Shown here piece after piece: positions 2,937-63,221 of a stretch of DNA of 64,000 bases; within the stretch, counting starts at the first letter, position 1; every line of letters starts with the position of its first letter. Source of the stretch: Patescibacteria group bacterium (GTDB lineage Bacteria; Patescibacteriota; Patescibacteriia; JACRDY01); NCBI GenBank assembly GCA_041650515.1, contig JBAZLA010000001.1, positions 146,710 through 210,709 on the forward strand, written 5' to 3'. A program made the position numbers and the translations under genes. The notes beneath the pieces were generated by a model. It was not told where the DNA came from, did not search any database, and was given only the letters and a program-made list of their open reading frames with translations.

Positions 2937-4586
<1,650 letters not shown>

Positions 4587-5157
4587 TTAAATACTGATAA
4601 GTTGTCCGTACACTAACAACACCAGTTGCTAATGTTTACCCCGTAGAGTCTACGGGTTTAACTCTCTCAGTAGAGTTATAAGAGAAAATAAAGTTGAATA
4701 GATAGGTTACTTCGCACTTACGATTTACTATCACTTTTCGATTGTCAATGTTCCTTTTCTCACCTCTTAATTTTTTATCAAATTAAGAGACGAAAAAACA
4801 GTGCGGGCCAAATCAACGACTTCCACTGGGGAATGTCTACTCAGCCATCACTGTTTTTCCGTCTACTTTTCCCCTGTCAGGGGAAAGTTTAGATGAATTG
4901 TAATAATGTTTTTATGGAACTTTTTATGCCTTGCCTCGCCGGTGCCCTAAAAGGGCATAGGCGGGTTATTTTTAAAGCCCTCTCATTATATACCTTTGCT
5001 AGACCCTGTCAAGGGTGAGACAACAAGCCAATAATGCACAAATTATACCCAGTCAATTTATAACCTAAATAGTAAAATAACCATTGTCCAAACCCTTGAC
5101 TAAATTGATTGTCCGTGTTACAGTTACTAATCCATTTCTCACACCAAGGAGGGCACT

Positions 5158-5510: not shown

Positions 5511-5541
5511 TCACTAATTATTATAACAACATAAACCTAAT

Positions 5542-5697
5542 GGGGGTTTGGGGCGAATACGGCGCGAAGCCGAGCTCCGACCTTTTTTGATTACGCCGAG
5601 GAGCGAGGCGGGTAGAACGAGCTGGGGATGAACAACGAATCGCGCCTGATGAGCCCCAAAGCTTTTTTGGTTACTTTTTTGGCTACAAAAAAGTAAC
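5542..5697 (+). repeat. Structured intergenic repeat family, copy 1 (GGGGTTTGGGG...CCCCAAAGC TTTTTT + GTTACTTTTTTGGNTACAAAAAAGTAAC hairpin)
   Basis: It shares a conserved core with the copies at 13634, 23507, 26186, 51869 and 60850. The core is GGGGTTTGGGGCG-AATACGGCGCGAAGCCGAG...GAGCGAGGCGGGTAGAAC...AACAATGAATCGCGCC...GCCCCAAA. Confidence 0.75.
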
Positions 5698-5722
5698 CTA
5701 CCTGCTAATAAAATAATACCTG

Positions 5723-6999: not shown

Positions 7000-7154
7000 A
7001 CGCTATAGTACTTAATACATAGTACACAGTACAGAGTAAATTGACCAGCCAGCAACATTTGGCTGATGTACTCTGTACTCAGTACTGTGTACTATTATAA
7101 AACAAAAACCGTCGGTTTGTCACCAACGGTCTTCGTTTTATTCAATGAACAATT

Positions 7155-13485: not shown

Positions 13486-13633
13486 ATATAAATAATCAAT
13501 TTAAGGTAAAAATATTTTACCACACTCAATCAAGTGTAACAAGCAATTAATCACCGGCGGCTTCTATTCTAAAACTATACTCTTTCCGATTTTTAGTTTT
13601 AATTTTAAAACCATAAAGATATTAATCCAGTAG

Positions 13634-13789
13634 GGGTTTGGGGCGAATATGGCGCGGAGCCGAAGTCCCCATCTGGTCGATACTGACCAGGGGACGAGGC
13701 GATTAAAACTAATTTCAAACTAAACAATGAATCGCGCCTTATAAGCCCCAAAACTTTTTTGGTTACTTTTTTGGTTGCAAAAAAGTAAC
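13634..13789 (+). repeat. Structured intergenic repeat family, copy 2 (with ~70-bp 5' preface from ~13560)
   Basis: It has the same GGGGTTTGGGGCGAATATGGCGCGGAGCCGAAG...CGCGCCTTATAAGCCCCAAAAC TTTTTTGGTTACTTTTTTGGTTGCAAAAAAGTAAC architecture. The internal hairpin GTCCCC...GGGGAC is compensatory relative to copy 5. Confidence 0.75.
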
Positions 13790-13830
13790 ATATTAAGACA
13801 ATTTTAGTAACAATAAAAACATCCCCCGAT

Positions 13831-23349: not shown

Positions 23350-23506
23350 AAGTTAGCTTTCTTTAATATTGATTATCTGACCCTATTATACCAAGCTAAA
23401 CAAAAATGAACTACCATCGACTCAGCGGCGACGGTTCCGTTCGACTGACTACGCCAGGGTAGTTTTATTATTATTATTTCAAAACGACCAAGATATCAAA
23501 CTGCCC

Positions 23507-23712
23507 GGGGTTTGGGGCAAATACGGCGCGAAGCCGAAGCTCCGACCTTTTCTGATTACGCCAAGGAGCGAGGCGGGTTAGTCCGTAGACAGCTAAACAA
23601 TGAATCGCGCCTTATGAGCCCCAAAACTTTTTTGGTCCGCCTAGACTCGCTAGGCGAGGCTGGTTACTTTTTTGCCCGCCTTGCCGGCGAGGCAGGGTTA
23701 CAAAAAAGTAAC
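23507..23712 (+). repeat. Structured intergenic repeat family, copy 3 (preface from ~23440; extra hairpin inserted in terminal loop)
   Basis: It reads GGGGTTTGGGGCAAATACGGCGCGAAGCCGAAGCTCCGACC...GAGCGAGGCGGGTTAGTCCG...AATGAATCGCGCCTTATGAGCCCCAAAAC TTTTTTGG...GTTACAAAAAAGTAAC. Confidence 0.75.
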
Positions 23713-26081: not shown

Positions 26082-26185
26082 AATAAACCGCCGCTCCAAT
26101 AATTATCGGAGCGGTTTTGTTTTACTGACTTCGCCAGCCTAGTTCCTTATTCTTATTTCAAAACGATAAAGATATTAAACTAATA

Positions 26186-26343
26186 GGGGTTTGGGGTCGG
26201 CAAGGGGCCGAGCCGAGTCTCCGACCTTTTCTGACTACACCAAGGAGCGAGGCGGGTAGAACCGTAAATAGATAAACAGTACTTTGCCCCTTGCCGACCC
26301 CAAAACTTTTTTATATTACTTTTTTGGTTACAAAAAAGTAATA
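26186..26343 (+). repeat. Structured intergenic repeat family, copy 4 (preface from ~26122)
   Basis: It reads GGGGTTTGGGGTCGGCAAGGGGCCGAGCCGAG...TACTTTGCCCCTTGCCGACCCCAAAAC TTTTTTATATTACTTTTTTGGTTACAAAAAAGTAAT. The closing helix GGGGTCGGCAAGGGGC/GCCCCTTGCCGACCCC is perfectly complementary and differs from copy 1 by compensatory changes. Confidence 0.75.
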
Positions 26344-26473
26344 TACCAACCAAAGTAAATACCCCTAGGACTGCTCCAATCCGATTTTACGTCGGACCTC
26401 GCAATGACGTGAACAAAAATTTGGCGGTTCGGCCTAAAACCTCTATAATTAGGTTATAATCTAGCAATAAAAT

Positions 26474-39023: not shown

Positions 39024-40130
39024 TTATTCTCTTATCTTCAAAAAATACGAAGCTAAATAACTAGCGACTGGAACAGCGGCCATTAGGGCTATGCTACCAA
39101 CTAACATTCTTACTATCTCAGTTGCCACAATTTCATTACTGACCACCTGCTCAAACCCTAGAAAAGGTGGTTCGTGAACATTAAACAAAATTAATAATGG
39201 AAGTGACGCGCCAGCATAGGCAAAAAACAATGTGTTGGTCATAGAGCTTATATGGTCAACGCCCACCTTCAAACTACTAAAAAATATTTCTCTATTAGAG
39301 AATTTAGGATTAGCTCTTTTAAGCTGTTCAACCACCGAAATCTGACTAATAACTACGTCATCTAAAACACCTAAAACACCGATTAAAATTCCGGCCAACA
39401 GTAGCCCTTCCAGGTTTAAACTATTACCATATAAGTTAATTAAATAAATCGATTCTTCGCCCGCTAAACCAGACAACTTAACAAAAGATGAAAAAAATAC
39501 AGACAACAACCCCGCTAAAGCTAAAGAAAAAAATAAACTAGCGTTAGCTAAATGCGCTTTCCTATTCAAACCTTGAGTTAAATAAATAGCTAAAGCTAAA
39601 ATTAAAAAACCCCCCACAACAGTTATAAAAACCGGGCTGCCGCCGTTTATTATTCTAGGAATAATTATTTTTAGAATAACGACGAAACTGATCAATAGGG
39701 CAATCAGAGAACGAAACCCCTTCCACTTGCCAACGATCAAAACACTAATAGCAAAAACAAGAAATAATAAATAAATTTTATTAGTTCTGTAGTAGTCTAC
39801 TATATATATTTGGCTGTTTCCCTCAAAATCAAAACTTTCCGCTACCAAAACCTTGTCACCTTTTTGATAAATATTATTTTTGACAACTTCAAAATCGTGT
39901 ACCCCTTCAAAAATAAATTCTTTACCCTTGTAGCCATTTTCTAAGCCTCTAATCTTTATATTCTGTTGAGTATATACCCGACCATCTTCAGACTCTTTTT
40001 CAGTCTCTAATAAAATCTCGAGGACCTCGGCTTTGAATATTTTTTCCTCTGGAATATCAGCTCCTTCTTGCGCGAAAAGAAAAGAAGGTATTAATAATAG
40101 AACCAAAAATATAAATATTATTTTTTGCAT
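39024..40130 (-). CDS. YibE/F-like membrane protein
   Basis: 368 aa with a signal peptide and extracellular domain, then a polytopic region with DDVVISQISVVE...NTLFFAYAGASLP. Confidence 0.45.
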   Translation of the reverse strand: MQKIIFIFLVLLLIPSFLFAQEGADIPEEKIFKAEVLEILLETEKESEDGRVYTQQNIKIRGLENGYKGKEFIFEGVHDFEVVKNNIYQKGDKVLVAESFDFEGNSQIYIVDYYRTNKIYLLFLVFAISVLIVGKWKGFRSLIALLISFVVILKIIIPRIINGGSPVFITVVGGFLILALAIYLTQGLNRKAHLANASLFFSLALAGLLSVFFSSFVKLSGLAGEESIYLINLYGNSLNLEGLLLAGILIGVLGVLDDVVISQISVVEQLKRANPKFSNREIFFSSLKVGVDHISSMTNTLFFAYAGASLPLLILFNVHEPPFLGFEQVVSNEIVATEIVRMLVGSIALMAAVPVASYLASYFLKIRE

Positions 40131-40154
40131 ATGAGCGTATTATATCTCAATTCC

Positions 40155-40232
40155 ACTAAAATCAAAAACACCTCCCAAAATAGGAGATGTCTTTTCCTTT
40201 GTCTTCGAACTTATGCCTAGAAACAAAGATCA
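40155..40232 (+). repeat. 75-bp direct repeat, copy A (terminator-like hairpin + T-rich tract)
   Basis: It matches 40790-40865 at about 88% identity. The sequence is aaaaacacctccc...ggagatgtcttttcctttgtcttcgaacttatgcctagaaacaaag. Confidence 0.7.
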
Positions 40233-40252: not shown

Positions 40253-40768
40253 CTATAGATGAAGCTTTGCGCCTTGATATTTCTCTAATAATTTCTTAAT
40301 ATCCTTATTAGATTTTATAATAATTATTTTTTTATTACTATGTTTCTTTAATAACTCTAGTGCTCTAGGTTTTCTTTCCTGAGGATATTCTAACAAAATA
40401 TTTCTAATTAACTTAAGGCTTACTTTTTCTTCACAATTGTTTAACTTATCAATTCTATCTTTTAAAATTCTTCTCTTAAACACTCGCCAGAGACAAACAG
40501 AACGATTGATATCTAAAAATATTATTGCATCGGTTGCTGGAGCTATAATATCAAGGGTGCTTTTATAATTTCCTTCTAAAATCCAACGGTCAGTTTTTAT
40601 CAACTCTAAAACTTTTTTTCGCCATCCACTTTTTTCTGGACTTTTCCATCCTGGTTGCCAATAACATTGGTCTAAACTCACAAAAGGAAAACTCAATATT
40701 TCACCAATCTTTTTTGCAATTGTAGATTTACCAGACCCAGAAGAACCTATAATTAAAATTCTTTTCAT
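40253..40768 (-). CDS. P-loop NTPase (adenylate-kinase/FlaR 'topology modulation'-like)
   Basis: 171 aa with a Walker A motif in ILIIGSSGSGKSTIAKKIG. The gene is bracketed by the 75-bp direct repeats. Confidence 0.55.
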   Translation of the reverse strand: MKRILIIGSSGSGKSTIAKKIGEILSFPFVSLDQCYWQPGWKSPEKSGWRKKVLELIKTDRWILEGNYKSTLDIIAPATDAIIFLDINRSVCLWRVFKRRILKDRIDKLNNCEEKVSLKLIRNILLEYPQERKPRALELLKKHSNKKIIIIKSNKDIKKLLEKYQGAKLHL

Positions 40769-40789
40769 ATAGACGAATTATACCTTATT

Positions 40790-40865
40790 TCTCAAACCAA
40801 AAACACCTCCCTCATCAGAAGGAGATGTCTTTTCCTTTGTCTTCGAGCTTATGCTTAGAGACAAA
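40790..40865 (+). repeat. 75-bp direct repeat, copy B, abutting tRNA-His
   Basis: See copy A. Confidence 0.7.
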
Positions 40866-40938
40866 GGTGACCGACGGGAATCGAACCCGTATAGCTGGTG
40901 CCACAGACCAGTGCACTAACCATTGTGCTACGGTCACC
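40866..40938 (-). tRNA. tRNA-His (anticodon GTG) with encoded G-1
   Basis: The reverse complement is G-GTGACCGTAGCACAATGGTTAGTGCACTGGTCTGTGGCACCAGCTATACGGGTTCGATTCCCGTCGGTCACC. The extra 5' G pairs with the discriminator C, which is the His identity element. The anticodon loop is CTGTGGC. Confidence 0.8.
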
Positions 40939-40984
40939 ATACATTAATTATTAATTACTAATTAATAATTGGTAACTGTTGTAA

Positions 40985-41264
40985 TCGCCCTCAGTAGGAA
41001 TCCCACCCCTACGGGTGGTGGCCCGTTAGGGCCAGAACCTACAAGAGAACAGTTGCTCTACTACTGGTTTCCAATATTCGCCCTCAGTAGGAATCCCACC
41101 CCTACGGGTGGTGGCCCGTTAGGGCCAGAACCTACAAGAGAACAGTTGCTCTACTACTGGTTTCCAATATTCGCCCTCAGTAGGAATCCCACCCCTACGG
41201 GTGGTGGCCCGTTAGGGCCAGAACCTACAAGAGAACAGTTGCTCTACTACTGGTTTCCAATATT
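40985..41264. repeat. Three tandem 93-bp units, each ending (tRNA orientation) in the 17-nt tRNA-Arg 3' terminus and containing a tRNA-3'-half-like segment with 32-nt double-hairpin insertion
   Basis: The units begin at 40985, 41079 and 41172 and are essentially identical. The next copy at 41265 is the genuine tRNA-Arg. The ORF-track 113-aa frame 40969..41310 is a repeat artefact. Confidence 0.8.
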
Positions 41265-41336
41265 CGCCCTCAGTAGGAATCGAACCTACATATCCAGCTT
41301 AGAAGGCTAGTGTTCTATCCATTGAACTATGAGGGC
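41265..41336 (-). tRNA. tRNA-Arg (anticodon TCT)
   Basis: The reverse complement GCCCTCATAGTTCAATGGATAGAACACTAGCCTTCTAAGCTGGATATGTAGGTTCGATTCCTACTGAGGGCG is a 72-nt cloverleaf. Confidence 0.8.
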
Positions 41337-45193: not shown

Positions 45194-47527
45194 ATGTCCG
45201 AAATCAAAGAATTTTCTTTGGAAATCGCCGGCAAAGAATTAAAAGTTCAAGTCGGTAAACTAGCCATGCATACCAACGCTAGCTGCACCGTCCAATACGG
45301 CGATACGGTAGTTTTAGCAACTGCCGTCATGTCTCCCACCGCACGGGAAGATATTGATTACTTCCCGTTGATGGTCGATTATGAAGAAAAAATGTATGCC
45401 GCTGGCAAAATCAAAGGTAGCCGGTTTATCAAACGTGAAGGCCGACCAACTGACGAAGCTATTCTTAGCGGCCGAATGATCGATCGTGGCCTGCGACCAC
45501 TCTTTCCTGAGGAGCTAAGAAACGACGTTCAGACTGTTCTGACCGTGCTCTCGAGCGATGGTGAAAACGATCCTGATACCATCGCCATTACCGCTGCCTC
45601 GATTGCTCTGCATATCTCTAACATTCCTTGGAACGGCCCACTAGTCGGTATCCGCGTTGGTCAGATCGAGGGCGAGTGGGTTTTAAATCCCAGCTATGCC
45701 GCTCGAGAAAAATCTACTTGCGACATCGCTTTTTCGGTGACCGCCGATAAGGTAATGATGTTTGAAGCCACCGGTCAAGAAATCGCCGAAGAAACCTTTT
45801 TCGAAGCGGTCCAGTTTGGCCTCAAACATGGTAAAAAAGTGATTAAATTTATCGAAGAAATCCGCCAAGCCGTTGGCAAAGAAAAAGTCCCGCTAACCCA
45901 AATCAAAGAGGAAGCGGCAGTGGCAGAATTCCCTGGCGAAGACACTCCGGCCGAAGCGATCGAAGCGGAGAAAATCTACGAACAAGCCAAAGCGGAAACT
46001 GAACAATTTATTCTCCAAAATTTGGATCAATACTTGTTTGATAAACCCAAGGGCACCAAACGAGAACGCAAAGAAATTTTGGCCGAACTTAAGGCCAAAG
46101 TCGAAGCTTTCTTATTGGAAAAACAAGTTGGCAAAGACAAACGCAAAAAAATCCTCAAAGATTTTGACCTCTTCGTGGAAGCGCAGATCTCCAAGGCGAT
46201 CTTGGCCGCCGACCGGCGCGTCGATGGCCGCAAATTAGATGAGATCAGACCACTAGGCTGTGAGATCGGCCTCTTGCCGCGCACTCACGGCTCCGCCCTG
46301 TTTAATCGCGGTGAGACACAGATTCTCTCCACTGTCACTTTGGGCTCACCCGGCGATGAACAGTTGCTCGACTCAATGGAAGAAAGCGGCAAAAAACGCT
46401 ATATGCATCATTATAACGATGCGCCCTTTAGCTACGGCGAAGCCGGCCCCTTGCGTGGTCCAGGCCGTCGAGCGATTGGCCACGGCGCTTTAGCCGAAAA
46501 AGCTTTATTGCCAGTTCTACCAACTAAAGAAGATTTTCCTTATACTATCCGCGTTGTCTCCGAAGTGATGAGCTCTAACGGCTCATCCTCAATGGGTTCA
46601 ACCTGTGGCTCGTCATTGGCCCTAATGGATGCCGGCGTACCAATCAAAAAACATGTCGCCGGTATTGCGATGGGTCTAGCGACTGATAGCCAAAACAATT
46701 ACAAAGTTATTACCGACCTCCAGGATTTAGAAGATGGTCCTGGTGGTATGGACTTTAAGGTAGCCGGTACCCGTGATGGTATCACGGCTGTCCAGATGGA
46801 CACCAAAACCAATGGACTAACTTTAGAGATGATTGAAAAAGCCTTAGCCCAAGCCAAAAAGGCTCGGCTCCAGATTATCGACCTGATGGAAAAAACCATA
46901 CCAACACCACGACCCGACCTTTCGCCTTATGCGCCGCGAATTGTCTCCTTCCATATCGAACCAGATAAAATTCGCGAGGTGATCGGCCCCGGCGGTAAAG
47001 TGATTAACGAAATAATCGCCGCCACCGGCGTTGATATTGATATCGAAGATGACGGCCTAGTAATGATTACCGGCACCGACCCAGAAAAAACTCAGCAAGC
47101 TGTTGATTGGGTCAAAAATATTGTTCGCGAAGTCCAGGCCGGCGAAATATTTGAAGGCAAAGTCACCCGGCTGATGGACTTTGGTGCTTTTGTTGAAGTG
47201 TTGCCTGGCCAAGAAGGCTTGGTTCACATTTCCGAATTAGCCCAAACCAGAACCGAAAAAGTGACCGACGTCGTTAATATCGGCGATAAGGTTAAAGTAA
47301 TTGTTAAAGAAATTGACGACCAGGGCCGAATCAATCTCTCAATCAAACGACTCGATCCTAATTATAAGGATCAACCTCGGTCGAGCTATGGTGACCGTGG
47401 CGGTAACGATCGCGGCGGCCGCAGCGGCTACCGTGGTAATAACCGCAGTAACAGCCATAGCCACTACCAAAATGATAAACCCAGTCCAACCACTCCAGAC
47501 AAGAAAAAGCACTTCTGGGAAAAATAA
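45194..47527 (+). CDS. pnp: Polynucleotide phosphorylase (with RGG-rich C-terminal tail)
   Basis: 777 aa with two RNase PH domains, a KH domain (IGPGGKVINEI) and an S1 domain. It is downstream of rpsO. Confidence 0.9.
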   Translation: MSEIKEFSLEIAGKELKVQVGKLAMHTNASCTVQYGDTVVLATAVMSPTAREDIDYFPLMVDYEEKMYAAGKIKGSRFIKREGRPTDEAILSGRMIDRGLRPLFPEELRNDVQTVLTVLSSDGENDPDTIAITAASIALHISNIPWNGPLVGIRVGQIEGEWVLNPSYAAREKSTCDIAFSVTADKVMMFEATGQEIAEETFFEAVQFGLKHGKKVIKFIEEIRQAVGKEKVPLTQIKEEAAVAEFPGEDTPAEAIEAEKIYEQAKAETEQFILQNLDQYLFDKPKGTKRERKEILAELKAKVEAFLLEKQVGKDKRKKILKDFDLFVEAQISKAILAADRRVDGRKLDEIRPLGCEIGLLPRTHGSALFNRGETQILSTVTLGSPGDEQLLDSMEESGKKRYMHHYNDAPFSYGEAGPLRGPGRRAIGHGALAEKALLPVLPTKEDFPYTIRVVSEVMSSNGSSSMGSTCGSSLALMDAGVPIKKHVAGIAMGLATDSQNNYKVITDLQDLEDGPGGMDFKVAGTRDGITAVQMDTKTNGLTLEMIEKALAQAKKARLQIIDLMEKTIPTPRPDLSPYAPRIVSFHIEPDKIREVIGPGGKVINEIIAATGVDIDIEDDGLVMITGTDPEKTQQAVDWVKNIVREVQAGEIFEGKVTRLMDFGAFVEVLPGQEGLVHISELAQTRTEKVTDVVNIGDKVKVIVKEIDDQGRINLSIKRLDPNYKDQPRSSYGDRGGNDRGGRSGYRGNNRSNSHSHYQNDKPSPTTPDKKKHFWEK

Positions 47528-47580
47528 TACTAGTACTCAGTACCCAGTCCATAGTAATCTAGTTTCCCACTTCAATCATA

Positions 47581-47615
47581 ACACCCCGGTTATTTCAAAA
47601 ACTGGGGTGTTTGTT
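47581..47615 (+). terminator. Rho-independent terminator of pnp
   Basis: The stem acaccccggttatttcaaaaactggggtgt is followed by ttgtt. Confidence 0.55.
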
Positions 47616-47702
47616 ATCTGTGTACTATGTACTAGGTACTAGGTACTAACATTATAAAAAAAGCCACCCGTAGGTGACTAGCTGCTGTAGGCAAGACTTT
47701 AC

Positions 47703-50158: not shown

Positions 50159-50283
50159 CTAACAGCTGTGGACAAGTTGTTAACTTTCTGATTTTAAATT
50201 GTTATTTTTCTTTGTTAATAAAAAAGTAATCCACAGTTTTTTTAGCTAAATTTAAACAAAAAATATTAAATGTTGACATAGTT

Positions 50284-50312
50284 GATAGGGTGTCAAATTT
50301 ATGATATACTAA
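50284..50312 (+). promoter_or_regulatory. Sigma70-like promoter (TTGATA-17-TATACT)
   Basis: The sequence is ttgatagggtgtcaaatttatgatatact. Confidence 0.4.
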
Positions 50313-50319
50313 TAGTAGA

Positions 50320-50740
50320 TAACTTTTGTTCTTTCTAATCTTTTAGGGAAATGAACCGAATTGAGTTTGTTATTGGATGATTCGACAACAAATCAATCCT
50401 GAGTCCGCCTATGGCAGACGAAGGATCTAGTTGGGTTTATTTCTCTCTCACCCACTCGGTCTTTTTGGAGGCCGCAACCCTCCGCTAAAACAAAAAACAA
50501 AAACGGGCTACACCCTAAACCAGTCACTAGCCCAGACCAGGTGAGTGAGCGACGCGTAACTCAGTTGCAAGTAACGCCCAACGACCTAGAGGTTAAGTTC
50601 TATCCTAGCCCTATAAAAAAGGGCTTAGATAGCGGACCTGTGGGTCCTGTGGGGCGTCTAAAGTGCCTACTATTTATAAAATATCTCATCCAGAGTGGTG
50701 AGGGGGCGCTTCGGCGCCCCCTCTTTTTTTACTTTAAATT
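50320..50740 (+). ncRNA. Candidate ncRNA (~420 nt) bounded by promoter and strong terminator; class unknown
   Basis: No convincing ORF. The listed 81-aa ORF reads through the terminator. A strong terminator, gagggggcgcttcggcgccccctc plus T7, lies at 50700-50737. Internal hairpins are present, including atcctgagtccgcc...ggcagacgaaggat. Confidence 0.3.
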
Positions 50741-50924
50741 AGTACATAGTACTCAGCACCCAGTACACAGAAAAATATTAATCTAATAGCCTAACTAGTT
50801 AATTTACTTCCTAAAGTACTGGGTACTAGGTACTGGGTACTAGTTAATAATTGACAAAACCAATAAATTTGAGATAATGGGACAAACATTATCGAGGAGG
50901 GCTTTTTATTTAGGAATAATTGCT

Positions 50925-51735: not shown

Positions 51736-51868
51736 TTTCTATAATCCTGTTTCCCCTCCCCAAGAGGGGATTTTTAGTTTGGGTTAATTTTTATTTTAAG
51801 TGGAGTTAATCTATATCCACATAATATAAGATATAGACAAATCCACCGCCGCTAAACTAATAGAACCG

Positions 51869-52049
51869 GTTGGGGTCTGGGGCGGATGCGGCGCCGAGTC
51901 CCGCCCCGGCCTCTTTGGTCTTTCCTTAGGGGCGGGACGGGTAGAACGAACTAAAGTTCAACAATGAATCGCGCCTCATTATGTCTCTTGGCGCCAAGAG
52001 ACATAATCCCCAGGACTTTTTTGCTACTTTTTTAGTCATAAAAAAGTAG
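51869..52049 (+). repeat. Structured intergenic repeat family, copy 5 (divergent; hairpin GTCCCGCCCC/GGGGCGGGAC)
   Basis: It reads GGTTGGGGTCTGGGGCGGATGCGGCGCCGAG...GGGCGGGACGGGTAGAACG...AACAATGAATCGCGCC...GACTTTTTTGCTACTTTTTTAGTCATAAAAAAGTAG. Confidence 0.7.
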
Positions 52050-52107: not shown

Positions 52108-53643
52108 ATGACAATCAAAAAAACTATGATAACTACCATCAAAACCTGCGCGGTAATCGGCCTAAACTGCGAACCAGTGGAAGTGGAAGTCGATCTCAAT
52201 CGAGGCCAATCGTTTTTTGGGATCATCGGCCTGCCGGATAAATCAATCCAGGAAGCGACTGACCGCCTGCGTTCGGCGCTAAAAAACTCGGGTATTCCTT
52301 TCCCATCAAACAAAAGATTGATTATTAACTTGGCGCCGGCTGATGTGCGCAAAGAAGGCCCGGCCTACGATCTGCCAATGGCTGTGGGGATTATCCTGAG
52401 CGTCTTAGAATTAAAACCCGATTTAACTAACCATTTATTCATCGGCGAACTGGCACTGGAGGGTAATCTCCGGCCAACCCATGGTATTTTACCAATTGCT
52501 ATTTATGCCAAGGAACGAGGGATAAAAACACTTTGTCTACCCAAAGCTAATATAGCTGAAGCTAGCCTAATTCCCGGTCTGGAGCTTATCCCGCTTGATA
52601 ACTTGAATCAACTAATTGCCCACCTGCGCAATGAAAAAAATATCAAGCCGATCCAATCACCTGGCCTAGTTACTACCGACACGATCAACAACCTAACTTT
52701 AGATTTATCCTTAGTTAAAGGTCAACAACAAGCAAAGCGCGCGCTAGAAATCGCTGCCGCTGGCGGCCACAATATCCTGATGACTGGACCACCAGGCGCC
52801 GGTAAAACATTATTAGCTAAAACTCTGCCCTCGATCCTGCCACCGCTAACTACTGAGGAGATTCTCGAGGTGACCAAAATTTACAGTGTCGCTGGATTAT
52901 TACCAACTGACCAACCAATCATTACCGAGCGACCGTTCCGTTCACCACATCATTCCAGTTCTGGCGCGGCTTTAGTTGGCGGTGGCAAAAATCCCCGACC
53001 TGGCGAAATCTCACTGGCTCACCGCGGAATTTTGTTTCTGGACGAGTTCCCTGAATTTAACCGCCAAGTTATTGAAAACCTCCGCCAACCACTCGAGGAT
53101 GGCGTGGTGACTATTTGCCGCGCCGCCGGTAGCTTGGCTTTTCCGGCACGATTTACTCTAGTCGCCTCACAGAATCCTTGCCCCTGCGGTTTTGCGACTG
53201 ATCCGCACAAACCTTGCATTTGTACTCCCAGCCAAATTAACAACTATCGCCGTAAAATCTCCGGCCCAATCCTTGATCGGATTGACCTTCATCTAGAAGT
53301 ACCGCGCCTAGAGTTTGATAAATTAACCAGTGACAACCCCACGGACGAATCAAGCACTATCCGGTCCGCGGTGAGCCAAGCCCGACAAATCCAACACCGA
53401 CGCTTTGCTGGTTCAAAGATCATCACTAATGCCGAGATGGGCCCTAAAGAAATCAAAAAATTTTGTCAGGTCGATAATGCCGGTTTTGATCTTATCAAAA
53501 ACGCCGTTAACCAACTCCACCTCTCGGCCCGCGCCTATCATCGAATATTAAAAGTTGCCAGAACGATTGCCGATCTAGCAACTGAAGAAAAAATCAAAGT
53601 CGAATATCTAGCCGAAGCGCTACAATACAGAATTAAAAGTTAA
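52108..53643 (+). CDS. comM: YifB/ComM-family Mg-chelatase-like AAA+ ATPase
   Basis: 511 aa with Walker A ILMTGPPGAGKTLLAK, Walker B LFLDEF, a zinc-finger CPCG...C.C and a C-terminal helical domain. Confidence 0.85.
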   Translation: MTIKKTMITTIKTCAVIGLNCEPVEVEVDLNRGQSFFGIIGLPDKSIQEATDRLRSALKNSGIPFPSNKRLIINLAPADVRKEGPAYDLPMAVGIILSVLELKPDLTNHLFIGELALEGNLRPTHGILPIAIYAKERGIKTLCLPKANIAEASLIPGLELIPLDNLNQLIAHLRNEKNIKPIQSPGLVTTDTINNLTLDLSLVKGQQQAKRALEIAAAGGHNILMTGPPGAGKTLLAKTLPSILPPLTTEEILEVTKIYSVAGLLPTDQPIITERPFRSPHHSSSGAALVGGGKNPRPGEISLAHRGILFLDEFPEFNRQVIENLRQPLEDGVVTICRAAGSLAFPARFTLVASQNPCPCGFATDPHKPCICTPSQINNYRRKISGPILDRIDLHLEVPRLEFDKLTSDNPTDESSTIRSAVSQARQIQHRRFAGSKIITNAEMGPKEIKKFCQVDNAGFDLIKNAVNQLHLSARAYHRILKVARTIADLATEEKIKVEYLAEALQYRIKS

Positions 53644-53680
53644 TTACAAATTACGAATTACAAATTATCAATTTAAGACT

Positions 53681-54043
53681 ATGAAGGAAAATATTATCCA
53701 ACAAAAAAGCTACGTCTTTGCCTTGAGGATTATTAAATTATATGGATTCTTAGTTGAAAAACAGAGAGAGTTTGTTCTATCAAAACAAATTTTAAGATGC
53801 GGCACGTCGGTTGAAGCTAATATTGAGGAAGCAATTGGCGGTCAATCTAAAAAAGATTTCATTTTTAAAGTATCTATTGCTTATAAAGAAGCCAGGGAAA
53901 CTCATTATTGGATCAGACTTTTATATGATTCCGGTTTTTTGATTAAAAAACAATTCGGGTCGTTAATAGCAGACTGCGAAGTGTTAACTAAAATCACTGG
54001 TCGAATCCAAAAAACGTCTAAAGCTAAAGATTTTAATTCTTAA
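53681..54043 (+). CDS. Four-helix-bundle protein ('23S rRNA intervening-sequence protein' family, PF05635-like)
   Basis: 120 aa. The pattern SYVFALRIIKLY...LRCGTSVEANIEEA...SKKDFIFKVSIAYKEARETHYWIRLL is typical of the family. It is flanked by inverted CGAATTAC-type repeats. Confidence 0.7.
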   Translation: MKENIIQQKSYVFALRIIKLYGFLVEKQREFVLSKQILRCGTSVEANIEEAIGGQSKKDFIFKVSIAYKEARETHYWIRLLYDSGFLIKKQFGSLIADCEVLTKITGRIQKTSKAKDFNS

Positions 54044-54064
54044 TTCGTAATCTGCAATTCGTAA

Positions 54065-55363
54065 TTATTTAATGTAGCTGAGGGGATTAACGGTTTTACC
54101 ATTAATCCGGACCTCGAAATGCAGATGGGTGCCAGTTGAGTGGCCAGTGGTACCCATCATACCAATTGTTTGACCGCGCGTGACAGTGTCACCTAATTTA
54201 ACAAAAAGCTTGCTCATATGAGCATATAAGGTAGACAAACCACCACCGTGGTCAATTGCCAAAACATTACCATATCCATTATTCCAACCACCCCAACCAT
54301 ATCGGCTAATAGTCCCAGATTCAGCAGCATAAATGGGTGACGAATAATCACCATCAATATCCAAACCGCCATGTTTCCAGCCAAAATATTGAGTAATACG
54401 ACGTCCAGAGGTCGGCCATTGCAACTGAGTCGAGCTAGGAGTAGCTGAGGCTGGAGCCGATCCAACATAACTCCTAACCACCGGCTTGGGCGTTGGCGCA
54501 TAAACCGGTAATTTTTTGCCGCCGGGAATAATTAGCTCTTGGCCAATACTCAATGAGCTATTAACATCAAGGTCATTAGCAATCATAACTTGAGCAACCT
54601 CAATACCATAGAGCTGAGCTATCTTATTAATATTCTCACCGCGAACGACTTTATGTTTAATGCCAGAAACCGGCAGGATCGTCAGTTTATCGCCCGGCCG
54701 AATATAGCTCCTTTCAGTTAGCTTATTCTCCCACAGAACCGTATTGACTGAGATACCAAACTTCTCGGCGATCGAACCAATTGTGTCGCCCTGTTGTACT
54801 GTATAAGTTTCGCTCGCTGCTCTAGCCGGACCAGCCGTCTCGTTACCCGGAGAAATTTCTGGTTTAATCAGCGCCGTGCCGCCTTGAGTGGTGGCGGTAA
54901 TATCCTGAATTTCACCCTGGTTAGAAAATTTAGGTGTATTGGACGTAACCCCAGATTCATAGCCCAAATAACTAGAAATGTTTGAACCGGCCGGAGAATT
55001 ATCAATACTTTCTTCAACCAAGCCTAGTTCCTGGCCGCCGACTAACTGATAAAGAATTGTTTTTTTACCAAACTCCTCGTCGCGAAAACCATGCCAGCGC
55101 GCTTGAAGATTATTAGTAACCACCAAAAGACCCAATATCAAAATAATGCCATGGATAACATACCGATTGGTAATAATATCCCAAAGTTTATTACCTGAAG
55201 GGATATAAATTTTAAGTAATTGCCTCTTAAAAAACAGATAACCCTTATAGATCGGCAAAATCCCGAAGCCAAAAAGAAAACCACCAACAGCCTTTAGTGG
55301 TCTTTTAATCTTTGGCCAAAACCGGCCACCAAGAAAACCTATTCCCGTCTTCATCTTTACCAA
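54065..55363 (-). CDS. M23-family peptidoglycan endopeptidase with two LysM domains
   Basis: 432 aa. The LysM domains begin YTVQQGDTIGSIAEKFGIS and HKVVRGENINKIAQLYGIE. The M23 domain carries HxxxD...HLHFE. Confidence 0.8.
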   Translation of the reverse strand: MVKMKTGIGFLGGRFWPKIKRPLKAVGGFLFGFGILPIYKGYLFFKRQLLKIYIPSGNKLWDIITNRYVIHGIILILGLLVVTNNLQARWHGFRDEEFGKKTILYQLVGGQELGLVEESIDNSPAGSNISSYLGYESGVTSNTPKFSNQGEIQDITATTQGGTALIKPEISPGNETAGPARAASETYTVQQGDTIGSIAEKFGISVNTVLWENKLTERSYIRPGDKLTILPVSGIKHKVVRGENINKIAQLYGIEVAQVMIANDLDVNSSLSIGQELIIPGGKKLPVYAPTPKPVVRSYVGSAPASATPSSTQLQWPTSGRRITQYFGWKHGGLDIDGDYSSPIYAAESGTISRYGWGGWNNGYGNVLAIDHGGGLSTLYAHMSKLFVKLGDTVTRGQTIGMMGTTGHSTGTHLHFEVRINGKTVNPLSYIK

Positions 55364-60742: not shown

Positions 60743-60849
60743 ACCGACAACCGATCGCTCCGCTAATCAGCGGAGCGATTTTGTTTTACTAAGCCACGCA
60801 TGCCTATCCTACTATCTTTGTTTCAAAACAACGAAGGTGCAGAACCAGC

Positions 60850-61004
60850 GGGGTTTGGGGGCGGCACGGGGCGGAGCCGAAGCTTCGACCTCTTCTGATT
60901 ACACCGAGGAGCGAGGCGGATTAATCCGTAAGTAGATAAACAATACTTTGCCCCTTGCCGCCCCCAAAACTTTTTTGCATTACTTTTTTGGTTACAAAAA
61001 AGTA
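60850..61004 (+). repeat. Structured intergenic repeat family, copy 6 (preface from ~60784)
   Basis: It reads GGGGTTTGGGGGCGGCACGGGGCGGAGCCGAAG...GAGCGAGGCGG...TTTGCCCCTTGCCGCCCCCAAAAC TTTTTTGCATTACTTTTTTGGTTACAAAAAAGTAG. Confidence 0.75.
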
Positions 61005-61169
61005 GATAATTACGTAGATGAGACAGAGCTCCCTTCGACTCGCTTCGCTCGCTCAGGGCGGGCCTTCGCGGAGTTTACCCTGAGTGAAACGAAGGGCTCA
61101 GAATAACAACAATAAGGTGGGCCTGCCCCTACTGTTTTAAAACCCCAAATTTTGTTAAAATAACGGCAT

Positions 61170-61673
61170 ATGTCTATCGCCATCATGTCTGATAGCCACG
61201 ACAATCTACCTAATATCAATGAAGCGCTTAAAATTATCAACCAAGCACAAATCCAAACCATTATCCATTGCGGTGATGTCTGTTCAGCCGAAGTAACCCG
61301 ATATATTAGCAAACATTTCACTGGCCAGATCCACCTAATTGCTGGTAATGTTGCTGGTGACCACGCCAAGAAAATTAAGCGCTATCGGTTAAAAAACGTC
61401 ACCTTCTATAATCAAACTGGCACTATAAAAATAGCTAACAAGACGATCGGATTTGCCCACCAGCCAGCTGAAGCTAAACAACTAGCGGCCACCGGCGGTT
61501 ATGATCTAGTCTTCTATGGCCATACCCACCGACCCTGGGAAGAAACCATTGGCCAAACACGTCTAGTCAACCCCGGCACCTTAGCTGGCCTTTTTGCTAG
61601 ACCAACCTTTGCCATTTATAACCCAACAACCAACCAACTTGAACTTAAAATTCTTTACACCAATAATTGTTAA
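61170..61673 (+). CDS. YfcE/MJ0936-family metallophosphoesterase
   Basis: 167 aa with the SDSHDN, GDVCS and GHTHRPW motifs. Confidence 0.7.
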   Translation: MSIAIMSDSHDNLPNINEALKIINQAQIQTIIHCGDVCSAEVTRYISKHFTGQIHLIAGNVAGDHAKKIKRYRLKNVTFYNQTGTIKIANKTIGFAHQPAEAKQLAATGGYDLVFYGHTHRPWEETIGQTRLVNPGTLAGLFARPTFAIYNPTTNQLELKILYTNNC

Positions 61674-61704
61674 TTCGTAATTCTTAACTCGTAATTATTG
61701 AACT

Positions 61705-62121: not shown

Positions 62122-62891
62122 GGTGCTTTGTCTCTCGACTAATCATTTCGGCCGGCCAGGAGCTGCTACGCCAGTTTTATCTTTTTAACCGTGACCAGGT
62201 CAGATATAAATCTAAACACCAGATCGTTACTCGAGCTGATATTATTGCCGAAAAAATTATCATCTCAGCAATTAATAAAAAATACCCCACTCACCAAATA
62301 CTTTCTGAAGAAGCCGGTTTGTCTAAGCAGACTTCTGAATACCTCTGGATTATCGATCCGCTGGATGGCACCACTAATTTTGCTCTAAAGAACCCGCTTT
62401 TCGGCATCAGCATCGCCCTGGCTAAAAAAGGCCAGATTATTTTTGGCGCGATCTATATCCCGTTTATTAATAAATTAGTATTAGCCGAGCTCGGTCAGGG
62501 TGCTACCATCAACGGTAAAAAAATCCACGTTTCTAAAAAGAAAAATTTGAACGGCGCCTTTCTGACTTATTGCCACGGCTCCAAACTAAACGACGTCAAA
62601 CGGGCGATTGCGGTTTATAAAGGTTTAAAGATTAAATACTCTGACGTCCGTCAAATGGGTTCTTCAGTGGTGGAGATGGCTTGGGTGGCCGCTGGCTATA
62701 CTGACGGCCATTTTGTCCCCGGCGCTAATCTCTGGGACGTAGCGGCTGGTTCATTAATCATCCGCGAGGCTGGGGGCCGAGTAACTGATTTACAGAACCA
62801 TCCCTGGGATCTAAAATCAAAAGATCTGATTGCTTCCAACGGCCAAGTTCATAATCAATTACTTAAAGAAATTAGAAAATATGATCTATAG
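62118..62891 (+). CDS. Inositol monophosphatase-family protein (SuhB-like)
   Basis: 257 aa with WIIDPLDGTTNF. The ATGA overlap with the upstream gene suggests translational coupling. Confidence 0.75.
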   Translation: MRCFVSRLIISAGQELLRQFYLFNRDQVRYKSKHQIVTRADIIAEKIIISAINKKYPTHQILSEEAGLSKQTSEYLWIIDPLDGTTNFALKNPLFGISIALAKKGQIIFGAIYIPFINKLVLAELGQGATINGKKIHVSKKKNLNGAFLTYCHGSKLNDVKRAIAVYKGLKIKYSDVRQMGSSVVEMAWVAAGYTDGHFVPGANLWDVAAGSLIIREAGGRVTDLQNHPWDLKSKDLIASNGQVHNQLLKEIRKYDL

Positions 62892-62993
62892 CTACTACTA
62901 CGAATTTACAAATTTCTACGAATATACTAATACTACGAATTAATTGCTTTATTCGTATATTAGTAATGATTCGTAAATTCGTAGTTAATAAAT

Positions 62994-63221
62994 ATGATTT
63001 ACCGTATCAAAATCAAAGTTGTCACCAAGGCCAGCCGCGACCAGATTATCCACGAACCGGACGGCAGTTGGAAAGTCCGGGTAACAGTAGCGCCGACTCA
63101 AGGCAAAGCTAATGACCGGGTGATTGAGCTTATGGCTGACGAGTTTAAAACTGCCAAAAGCAACATCCAAATAATTCATGGACTCAGGAATAAAGAAAAA
63201 ATAGTTGAGATAATAATGTAA
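62994..63221 (+). CDS. DUF167/YggU-family small protein
   Basis: 75 aa, matching the ...KANDRVIELMADEFK...IQIIHG pattern. Confidence 0.5.
   Translation: MIYRIKIKVVTKASRDQIIHEPDGSWKVRVTVAPTQGKANDRVIELMADEFKTAKSNIQIIHGLRNKEKIVEIIM

Follow-up and report, generated by a model that had tools for sequence, protein, structure and literature searches.

What are the arrays of GTAC motifs that face each other at three intergenic loci in the DNA analysed here, and what could have placed them there? The stretch in question (hereafter the window) comprises 64,000 nt of contig JBAZLA010000001.1, only a portion of the host genome, and derives from a metagenome-assembled genome (MAG) of a Patescibacteria bacterium, a member of the Candidate Phyla Radiation (CPR). 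Each of the three loci is a pair of heptamer arrays placed head to head, with AGTACNN units on the left, NNGTACT units on the right and a short core between them; the elements so formed measure about 90-130 bp and contain no gene. GTAC is one flavour of a general design in which inverted heptamer arrays bound a core. Together with an insert in the 16S rRNA gene and a cassette carrying a gene of the S23p family, the three GTAC loci make up five elements of this one design within 64 kb. Our reading, which we hold with about even confidence, is that the GTAC loci are gene-less hairpin elements resembling the intervening sequences (IVSs) of bacterial rRNA, with heptamer arrays as their arms, and that they are likely substrates of RNase III.

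The three palindromes had been recognised in the initial annotation, and with small corrections to their coordinates their layout is as follows.

Element 1, left arm, 7005-7041: AGTACTT AATACAT AGTACAC AGTACAG AGTAAAT; five heptamers, two of them degenerate (from the sequence and a tandem-repeat finder, period 7).
Element 1, core, 7042-7065: 24 nt with a small hairpin, CAGCCA-N8-TGGCTG (from the sequence and its fold).
Element 1, right arm, 7066-7095: GTACTCT GTACTCA GTACTGT GTACTAT; four perfect GTACT units.
Element 2, left arm, 47529-47556: AGTACTC AGTACCC AGTCCAT AGTAATC.
Element 2, core, 47557-47617, plus strand: about 61 nt; terminator-like hairpin at 47580-47611 with 12 pairs and the tail TGTTATCTGT.
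Element 2, right arm, 47618-47650: GTACTAT GTACTAG GTACTAG GTACTAA.
Element 3, left arm, 50740-50767: AGTACAT AGTACTC AGCACCC AGTACAC.
Element 3, core, 50768-50814: AT-rich, about 47 nt.
Element 3, right arm, 50815-50843: GTACTGG GTACTAG GTACTGG GTACTAG; a perfect 14-nt double unit, present twice.

Two details had to be revised: the right arm of element 3 begins at 50815 and not at 50826, a start that misses its first one and a half units, and the GTAC motifs are not separated by a loose two or three nucleotides, as the repeat is strictly of period 7. This period is exact at all three loci, with four to five AGTACNN units in the left arms and four units, as the reverse complement, in the right arms (3.3-4.0 copies per arm according to the tandem-repeat finder). 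Within the units hardly any change is seen in the AGTAC pentamer (5 mismatches over 125 positions, each in a left arm), and the two NN positions vary freely.

The arrays are far from what the composition of the window would produce. The pattern GTACN3GTACN3GTAC, with at most one mismatch allowed, matches 12 times in the window, always at the three loci, against 0.02 matches expected and at most one in 100 shuffles. The initial annotation would have been overturned by a motif frequency no higher than expectation, and in the window the opposite was found, because GTAC as a whole occurs at its Markov expectation (observed/expected 1.03) yet is about 56 times denser at the three loci than elsewhere, 20 of the 91 GTAC sites (22%) falling within 319 bp (0.5% of the bases). 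The period, too, stands out: the window contains eight arrays of period 7, versus zero to three for each of the other periods from 5 to 11, and shuffled sequences contain none.

As expected from this layout, the arms can pair. They are 72-83% complementary over 29-43 nt (in element 1, the left arm and 7066-7094 form an inverted repeat of 29 nt at 83%), and the predicted stems are imperfect helices of 28-35 bp with energies of -37 to -51 kcal/mol and z-scores of -4.7 to -7.8. None of 200 shuffles folded as well as any of the elements, on either strand. Element 1 reaches -39 kcal/mol (z -6.2 on the plus and -4.7 on the minus strand), element 2 -49.8 (plus) and -51.3 kcal/mol (minus; z -7.8 and -7.3), and element 3 -36.6 (plus) and -44.4 kcal/mol (minus). 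In element 2 the stem extends outwards to 47524/47655 through ATAAT/ATTAT.

The two remaining elements of this design in the window use other heptamers, and two further arrays share the flavour of the S23p cassette.

16S insert, 3296-3464, minus strand: 169 nt; arm of AAATTCA type at 3321-3355, arm of TGAATTT type at 3410-3446, core with two hairpins.
S23p cassette, 53639-54066, plus strand: AATTACN array 53639-53674, open reading frame (ORF) 53681-54043, NGTAATT array 54031-54066.
Solo array of the AATTACG flavour, 61663-61694: TAATTCG TAATTCT TAACTCG TAATTAT; takes up the whole 31-nt space from a stop codon (61673) to a start codon (61705).
Degenerate palindrome of the AATTACG flavour, 62897-62985: TACGAAT/ATTCGTA units, 78% self-complementary; fills the gap between an ORF end at 62891 and an ORF start at 62994.

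The 16S insert takes the place of the 5-nt terminal loop of a 16S rRNA helix (positions 1149-1169 of the Rfam SSU model; the 16S gene spans 2937-4590) and folds on the rRNA strand with -49.8 kcal/mol (z -8.6). It thus sits where an IVS would be expected, in the loop of an rRNA helix, whereas the three GTAC elements lie between protein-coding genes. The cassette encodes a protein of 120 aa that belongs to PF05635 (E 2.3e-26) and to the TIGR02436 four-helix-bundle family and matches PDB 2RLD (E 1.5e-30). Its 3' array overlaps the last codons of the ORF, and the stop codon of comM lies inside the first unit of its 5' array. An S23p ORF, which is a feature of IVSs, is absent from the cores of the three GTAC elements, which measure 24-66 nt and hold no ORF of any kind. 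Nevertheless, the GTAC elements show the build of what we propose as a class, unpublished so far, of S23p cassettes bounded by heptamer arrays: inverted arrays around a core, in an intergenic gap or an RNA loop.

The association between S23p genes and heptamer arrays extends well beyond this window. Homologs of the window's S23p protein with 62-75% identity occur in Patescibacteria, Planctomycetes, Ignavibacteria, NC10, Thermodesulfobacteriota, Calditrichaeota and Bacteroidota. We sampled eight further distinct S23p loci, picked by protein similarity alone, and found inverted arrays of the AATTACG/AATTAGG type on both sides in seven of them; the eighth (L205) has them in part, so that the count including the window is eight of nine. 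In several of the sampled loci the 3' arm again overlaps the last S23p codons. Cassettes in different phyla (L281, L282, L283, L207 and L211) are wedged between operon partners, namely gyrB and a topoisomerase IV/gyrA-type subunit, a polyketide synthase and a nonribosomal peptide synthetase, two subunits of lysine aminomutase, YitT and an SMR-type protein, and RhuM and HsdR. In such operons the upstream TAA stop codon frequently lies inside the first heptamer unit.

The GTAC flavour has its own S23p genes. A scan for four consecutive GTACTNN units over 185,579 species genomes returned at least 120 loci in many phyla, and a profile search of 960 kb around the listed loci, which belong to other phyla, yielded four ORFs of the S23p family, none of them more than 70 nt from an AGTAC array. 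Among the matches listed, three S23p genes are bracketed by AGTAC arrays on both sides (L085, L089, L113) and one has an array on one side only (L061); in L089 the stop codon of the upstream gene is inside the first unit and the start codon of the downstream gene adjoins the last. In a comparison of nine proteins, those flanked by AGTAC arrays form a clade only about 20% identical to the clade flanked by AATTACG arrays. We considered a strict match between S23p clade and array flavour, on which these nine proteins agreed, and abandoned it on account of XCC0516 of Xanthomonas (PDB 2GSC), a clear homolog of S23p/PF05635 (E ~1e-24) that belongs to the AGTAC clade and stands beside GGGAATC repeats; published data place GGGAATC repeat #15 over its start codon. 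PF05635 has a relative in Avd, which is an accessory protein in diversity-generating retroelements, and is large, as one search at E <=1e-5 returned about 7,000 S23p or four-helix-bundle proteins, each standing for one 90%-identity cluster. A role of S23p in a defence system was dropped, as there was no PADLOC match.

Gene-less pairs also recur elsewhere. Among the at least 120 loci listed, 12 convergent pairs have the polarity seen in the window (AGTAC left, GTACT right) versus one with the opposite polarity, and the cores of the convergent pairs listed measure 33-355 nt. Across these listed loci, arrays lie inside an ORF in 44% of cases versus 90% of random positions, an enrichment in intergenic DNA. 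The most informative genome is that of Clostridium hydrogenum, a cultured isolate, in which an element of about 215 nt occurs at 11 or more scattered places; the copies share 75-91% identity and a common core, and they end exactly at their outermost heptamers, with unrelated sequence on either side. The consensus fold of these copies has 43 pairs, 12 of them with compensatory double changes, arm positions included, and one copy has GTAG units in one arm opposite CTAC units in the other. Because of these compensatory changes and of this GTAG/CTAC copy, we conclude that pairing is conserved and that the GTAC palindrome is not. Several AGTACAN copies of C. hydrogenum (L040, L055, L058, L047) lie inside an outer inverted repeat, CCTGAYAAATTACAATTT ... 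AAATTGTAATTTRTCAGG, an arrangement that suggests insertion into the loop of a pre-existing palindrome. Direct repeats indicative of target-site duplication were found at the ends of neither the three window elements nor the 11 C. hydrogenum copies. Rfam gave no family for the GTAC elements, for the C. hydrogenum copies or for L089 and L113, two of the S23p-cassette loci.

In the window, the GTAC elements occupy tight gaps between housekeeping genes. Element 1, on the strand of rpsP-KH-trmD, has the trmD start codon (6999) on one side and, adjoining it on the other, the KH terminator hairpin (7097-7141, minus strand). Element 2 begins 2 nt past the pnp stop codon (47525-47527) and is followed by the terminator of the downstream convergent gene (47662-47679). 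Element 3 begins 17 nt past a strong terminator (50700-50723) and is followed by the promoter of a dksA-like gene:

Near-consensus promoter of the dksA-like gene, 50851-50878: TTGACA-16-GATAAT, with TG.

The arrays had been described as wrapping or following intrinsic terminators, of pnp in one case and of a noncoding RNA in the other. There is indeed a terminator-like hairpin within element 2 and a strong terminator just before element 3; the noncoding RNA finds no match in Rfam or ARAGORN. The association with terminators is real, and is better put the other way round: the elements sit in or beside intergenic gaps that contain hairpins. The putative noncoding RNA corresponds to about 540 noncoding nt before element 3 (50160-50700), which close in the very strong terminator; a promoter-like site occupies 50282-50310, and the motif ATCCTGAGTCCGCCnnGGCnGACnAAGGAT occurs both here, at about 50397, and upstream of pnp, at about 45031.

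Since the relatives on record are either of the same strain or share at most 61% TrmD identity (the closest relative in a metagenome search), the comparison with an empty site reduces to a coarse one of spacer lengths. The KH-trmD spacer is 155 nt long in the window versus 62 nt in the nearest relative (L123), which has the terminator alone. Other contigs with an identical TrmD or DksA-like protein are of the same strain and identical to the window, no strain variation around the elements being on record, and the ORF adjoining element 2 has no other recorded copy.

How might such elements work? Unlike the architecture, the folding potential and the association with S23p, the steps that follow (transcription through the elements, cleavage by RNase III, effects on neighbouring genes, and how or whether the elements move) are what we infer. 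If either strand is transcribed, the arms would zip into a duplex of about 30 bp, consisting of 5-bp helices with 2x2 internal loops between them; because GTAC is self-complementary, more than one register of pairing would be open to them. RNase III cuts duplexes of this kind, and an element that is cut would be removed from an rRNA, or in an mRNA would define or separate transcript ends, here at the 3' end of pnp and upstream of both trmD and the dksA-like gene. In tight intergenic gaps this would do no harm, and the element could therefore persist as selfish or near-neutral DNA. The arrays themselves would be built and resized by heptanucleotide slippage. This reading takes no side on whether the elements arrived by insertion or grew around local hairpins.

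A number of observations weigh against it. The three cores differ in sequence and length, and self-BLAST relates none of them to another or to any other part of the window, which is a poor fit to simple copying and pasting of one element. The arms frequently disagree at the NN positions, and in element 3 the right arm resembles a recent 14-nt slippage product of which the left arm has no mirror. Folding gave no strand-specific RNA signal, both strands folding about equally well, so that fold strength neither supports nor excludes a role as RNA. A search of the window for an RNase III signature motif came out negative, and there is neither a true empty site from a close relative nor a visible target-site duplication. 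Solo GTACT arrays are common, and make up most of those in other genomes. In viral contigs, GTACT arrays occur at 67 loci compared with 66 for the control unit ACTGT, 42 for GATCT and 15 for CATGT. Because control 5-mers form arrays as often there, GTACT matches across phyla need not be one homologous family, a claim that we have weakened accordingly; that control units form arrays at all indicates that heptamer arrays are a general phenomenon, as earlier work had noted. None of the 67 viral GTACT loci is part of a convergent pair or lies beside an S23p ORF, and carriage of the paired design by phages was rejected on these grounds. Finally, heptamer slippage acts in situ in these lineages, even within trmD.

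The last points lead to the rival that survives best, although we rate it as rather doubtful: that the elements grew in place and were never mobile, with slippage putting heptamers into the lower stems of existing hairpins, template switching copying expansions between the arms of the quasi-palindrome, and the arrays being mutational by-products without IVS ancestry. It accounts for cores that are specific to their locus, one of them a terminator-like hairpin, and for unequal unit numbers between arms, including the perfect 14-nt duplication of element 3. Over-representation of heptamers in bacteria is known, and slippage has been proposed as its cause (PMC4692102); the viral controls, in which other units form arrays as often as GTACT, agree with this. 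The same is true of the KH-trmD spacer of another relative, L134, which carries a different, AT-rich heptamer palindrome, and of in-frame arrays with locally determined units inside the trmD genes of several CPR relatives. These internal arrays (L123:1951-1995, L130:2719-2761, L134:2715-2756 and L136:2720-2756, and also in L125 and L131) consist of AATCAAA, AATCCGA, AGTCGAA or AAGCNCA units at about the same relative position and are translated in frame as a 3-9-residue insertion in one loop (readable alignments: L123, L125, L130 and L134); the window's trmD has no such insertion. In another Patescibacteria MAG (L057:6978-7090), two adjoining arrays of different units, five GGTACTA followed by seven GCTGTTC, share a single intergenic gap, as growth in place would allow. 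What this rival does not predict is that one unit, AGTAC, should recur at three separate loci within 64 kb and another, AATTACG, at three others, as local seeding should give differing units. Nor does it predict the polarity bias of 12 to one among the matches listed, the C. hydrogenum family with its conserved core and sharp ends, or the joint occurrence of arrays and ORF in S23p cassettes of different phyla, whose 3' arm runs over the stop codon. We prefer the reading as IVS-like elements to one of growth in place alone.

A second rival, quite unlikely in our estimation, holds that the arrays are binding sites, on DNA or RNA, for a protein that reads AGTAC at 7-nt spacing and regulates the neighbouring genes, an S23p-type binder being one variant. 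The initial annotation had likewise offered a regulator that recognises the GTAC palindrome. A near-invariant AGTAC with free NN positions would be expected of a recognition site but not of a plain stem; judged from the sequence, it fits sequence-specific recognition, possibly by an S23p-type protein, and keeps such recognition open. The arrays also adjoin start codons and promoter-like sites, different S23p clades are accompanied by different array flavours, and binding by a post-transcriptional regulator has been proposed for the TAACTGA arrays of other bacteria (PMC4679880). Against this stand the C. hydrogenum copy that swaps GTAC for GTAG/CTAC, losing the palindrome and keeping the pairing, and the same architecture with unrelated units, AAATTCA inside 16S rRNA and AATTACN around S23p. 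Arrays occur in many phyla without a shared regulator, and in viral contigs those of GTACT are no commoner than those of control 5-mers. The neighbours pnp, trmD and the dksA-like gene form no obvious common regulon, the window encodes no candidate protein that would bind the AGTAC flavour, and XCC0516 loosens the match between clade and flavour. A GTAC-specific regulator is unlikely, since changes in the arms are compensatory, other flavours exist and one copy lies inside rRNA.

Third, the arrays could be the terminal inverted repeats of a transposase-dependent family, either a MITE (miniature inverted-repeat transposable element) or a repetitive extragenic palindrome (REP) or paired REP hairpin (REPIN) moved by a REP-associated tyrosine transposase (RAYT) or an IS200/IS605-type enzyme; we find this very improbable. 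Small size, inverted ends, intergenic location, hairpin formation, the lack of genes and the presence of relatives in multiple copies in at least one genome (C. hydrogenum) all recall such families, and the elements lie near hairpins, which are preferred targets of some single-strand transposases. The label "REP-like" of the initial annotation can stand in this loose sense of a dispersed, intergenic, hairpin-forming repeat; no defining REP or REPIN feature was shown. The GTAC elements differ in having no target-site duplications and in having arms of tandem heptamers, whose variable number is atypical of terminal inverted repeats. A MITE would have a common core in many copies; the C. hydrogenum copies share one, and the window cores are unrelated. 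No transposase-bearing parent was seen in the 64 kb of host sequence, and none adjoins the roughly 20 paired elements examined, where the adjacent gene, if any, is S23p, the ORFs of the window not having been systematically screened for RAYT or TnpA. Least probable of all is that the arrays are phase-variable contingency repeats, which would switch the expression of adjacent genes through changes in the number of heptamers, in the way known for 7-bp repeats in the promoters and 5' untranslated regions of Haemophilus: elements 1 and 3 are indeed beside promoter-like sites just upstream of genes, but about four units per arm with heterogeneous NN positions make a poor slippage substrate, the neighbours are housekeeping genes, switching needs no paired inverted arrangement, and independent contigs on record are identical across the locus.

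The window contains other repeats besides these. A structured, GC-rich element, about 130-170 nt long, has six plus-strand copies (5540-5705, 13630-13795, 23470-23640, 26150-26350, 51868-52010 and 60845-61010) with a consensus fold of 38 pairs, nine with compensatory double changes, and no Rfam match; four copies close in a terminator-like hairpin ACTTTTTTGGTTACAAAAAAGT, the copy at 51868 closes in a different palindrome and the one at 23470 is without this hairpin. This element is a candidate for a novel multi-copy small RNA of CPR bacteria. At 1665-1738, 2050-2178 and 2442-2540, perfect partial duplications surround tRNA-Pro and a 49-bp repeat in two copies overlaps tRNA-Phe; these may be the scar of an integration or duplicated att sites next to the rRNA operon. 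Between tRNA-His (40865-40938) and a 93-bp tandem repeat (40985-41281; 3.2 copies, ~99-100% identical) that overlaps the 3' end of tRNA-Arg (41265-41336) there is an ATTAATT heptamer array (40939-40980), and 40110-40228 resembles 40748-40866 (78% identical).

How do the GTAC elements compare with known systems? The short tandemly repeated repetitive (STRR) sequences of Cyanobacteria and the TAACTGA arrays are, like the arms described here, tandem heptamers of two to six or more units, mostly intergenic and often just upstream of start codons; the GTAC elements have at least three 7-nt units head to tail, and all three loci are intergenic. The canonical cyanobacterial STRR units are CCCCAGT, TTGGTCA and CAACAGT, and AGTACNN is none of these. 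Arrays of the STRR and TAACTGA kind are overwhelmingly direct and single, whereas the AGTAC arrays of the window all occur as arms of inverted pairs. TAACTGA repeats, known from Beggiatoaceae, Cyanobacteria and Bacteroidetes, form 169 direct sets versus one indirect set in the Guaymas genome, and their patchy phylogenetic distribution suggests horizontal spread (MacGregor 2015, PMC4679880). Closer in arrangement are the GGGAATC repeats of Xanthomonas, of which each genome has 70-75 convergent pairs, capable of forming stem-loops, mostly transcribed and varying in length between species (Rehm et al. 2015, PMC4692102). Like these, the GTAC elements are arrays of the same heptamer on opposite strands, close together and intergenic. 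The Xanthomonas unit is, however, G-rich and was studied for its capacity to form G-quadruplexes, which AGTAC-core units cannot form, and that paper draws no link to S23p or IVSs.

Similar in structure are the S23p-bearing IVSs of rRNA genes. In Coxiella burnetii, the IVS in helix 45 of 23S rRNA, which carries S23p, has three to four GACAGAT units at its 5' end, and RNase III cuts at the first repeat (PMC4990558). As in the GTAC elements, its paired ends form a long stem that bounds a variable core, and the window adds to the likeness: its 16S hairpin-loop insert is built alike, and heptamer arrays stand on both sides of its S23p gene. The GTAC elements differ in lying between protein-coding genes, in having no ORF and in being much shorter, and RNase III cleavage, reported for Coxiella, is predicted here. 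In the host clade itself, a survey of insertions in CPR rRNA genes found them at the tops of rRNA stem-loops, some encoding 23S_rRNA_IVP (Tsurumaki et al. 2024, PMC11270868); its focus is on homing-endonuclease introns, and the terms heptamer, tandem repeat and inverted repeat are absent from its main text. Heptamer repeats, convergent heptamer pairs (in Xanthomonas) and S23p-bearing IVSs are thus already known. In the searchable literature we did not find descriptions of inverted heptamer arrays as regular boundaries of S23p cassettes across phyla, of gene-less miniature forms of these cassettes, or of rRNA, cassette and intergenic forms together in one genome, and the link of heptamer arrays to S23p and IVSs appears undescribed so far.

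It is tempting to join these strands into one account of selfish cassettes found throughout the bacteria, which we put forward tentatively and, taken as a whole, regard as somewhat doubtful. Inverted heptamer arrays would be the defining ends of such cassettes, and full-length members would carry an S23p gene, whose product is an Avd-like pentameric four-helix bundle. Classical rRNA IVSs would be copies that landed in rRNA hairpin loops. Many orphan repeats, such as the Xanthomonas GGGAATC pairs, the CPR arrays and possibly the STRR and TAACTGA repeats, would be gene-less remnants or miniatures. By analogy with Avd, which acts on nucleic acid, S23p would act on its own array flavour and so propagate or maintain the cassette.

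The origin of bacterial rRNA IVSs and the function of the widespread S23p family have been questions since the early 1990s, and the over-representation of heptanucleotides in bacteria is without an accepted explanation. In this window one small CPR genome displays the three forms together, as an insert in rRNA, as a cassette with S23p and as intergenic copies without a gene. For annotation this carries a warning, as such hairpin elements can mimic or enclose terminators and can sit directly against stop and start codons. If true, the link between S23p and heptamer arrays would join three phenomena that have been described separately, and would provide a simple sequence signature for finding such elements.

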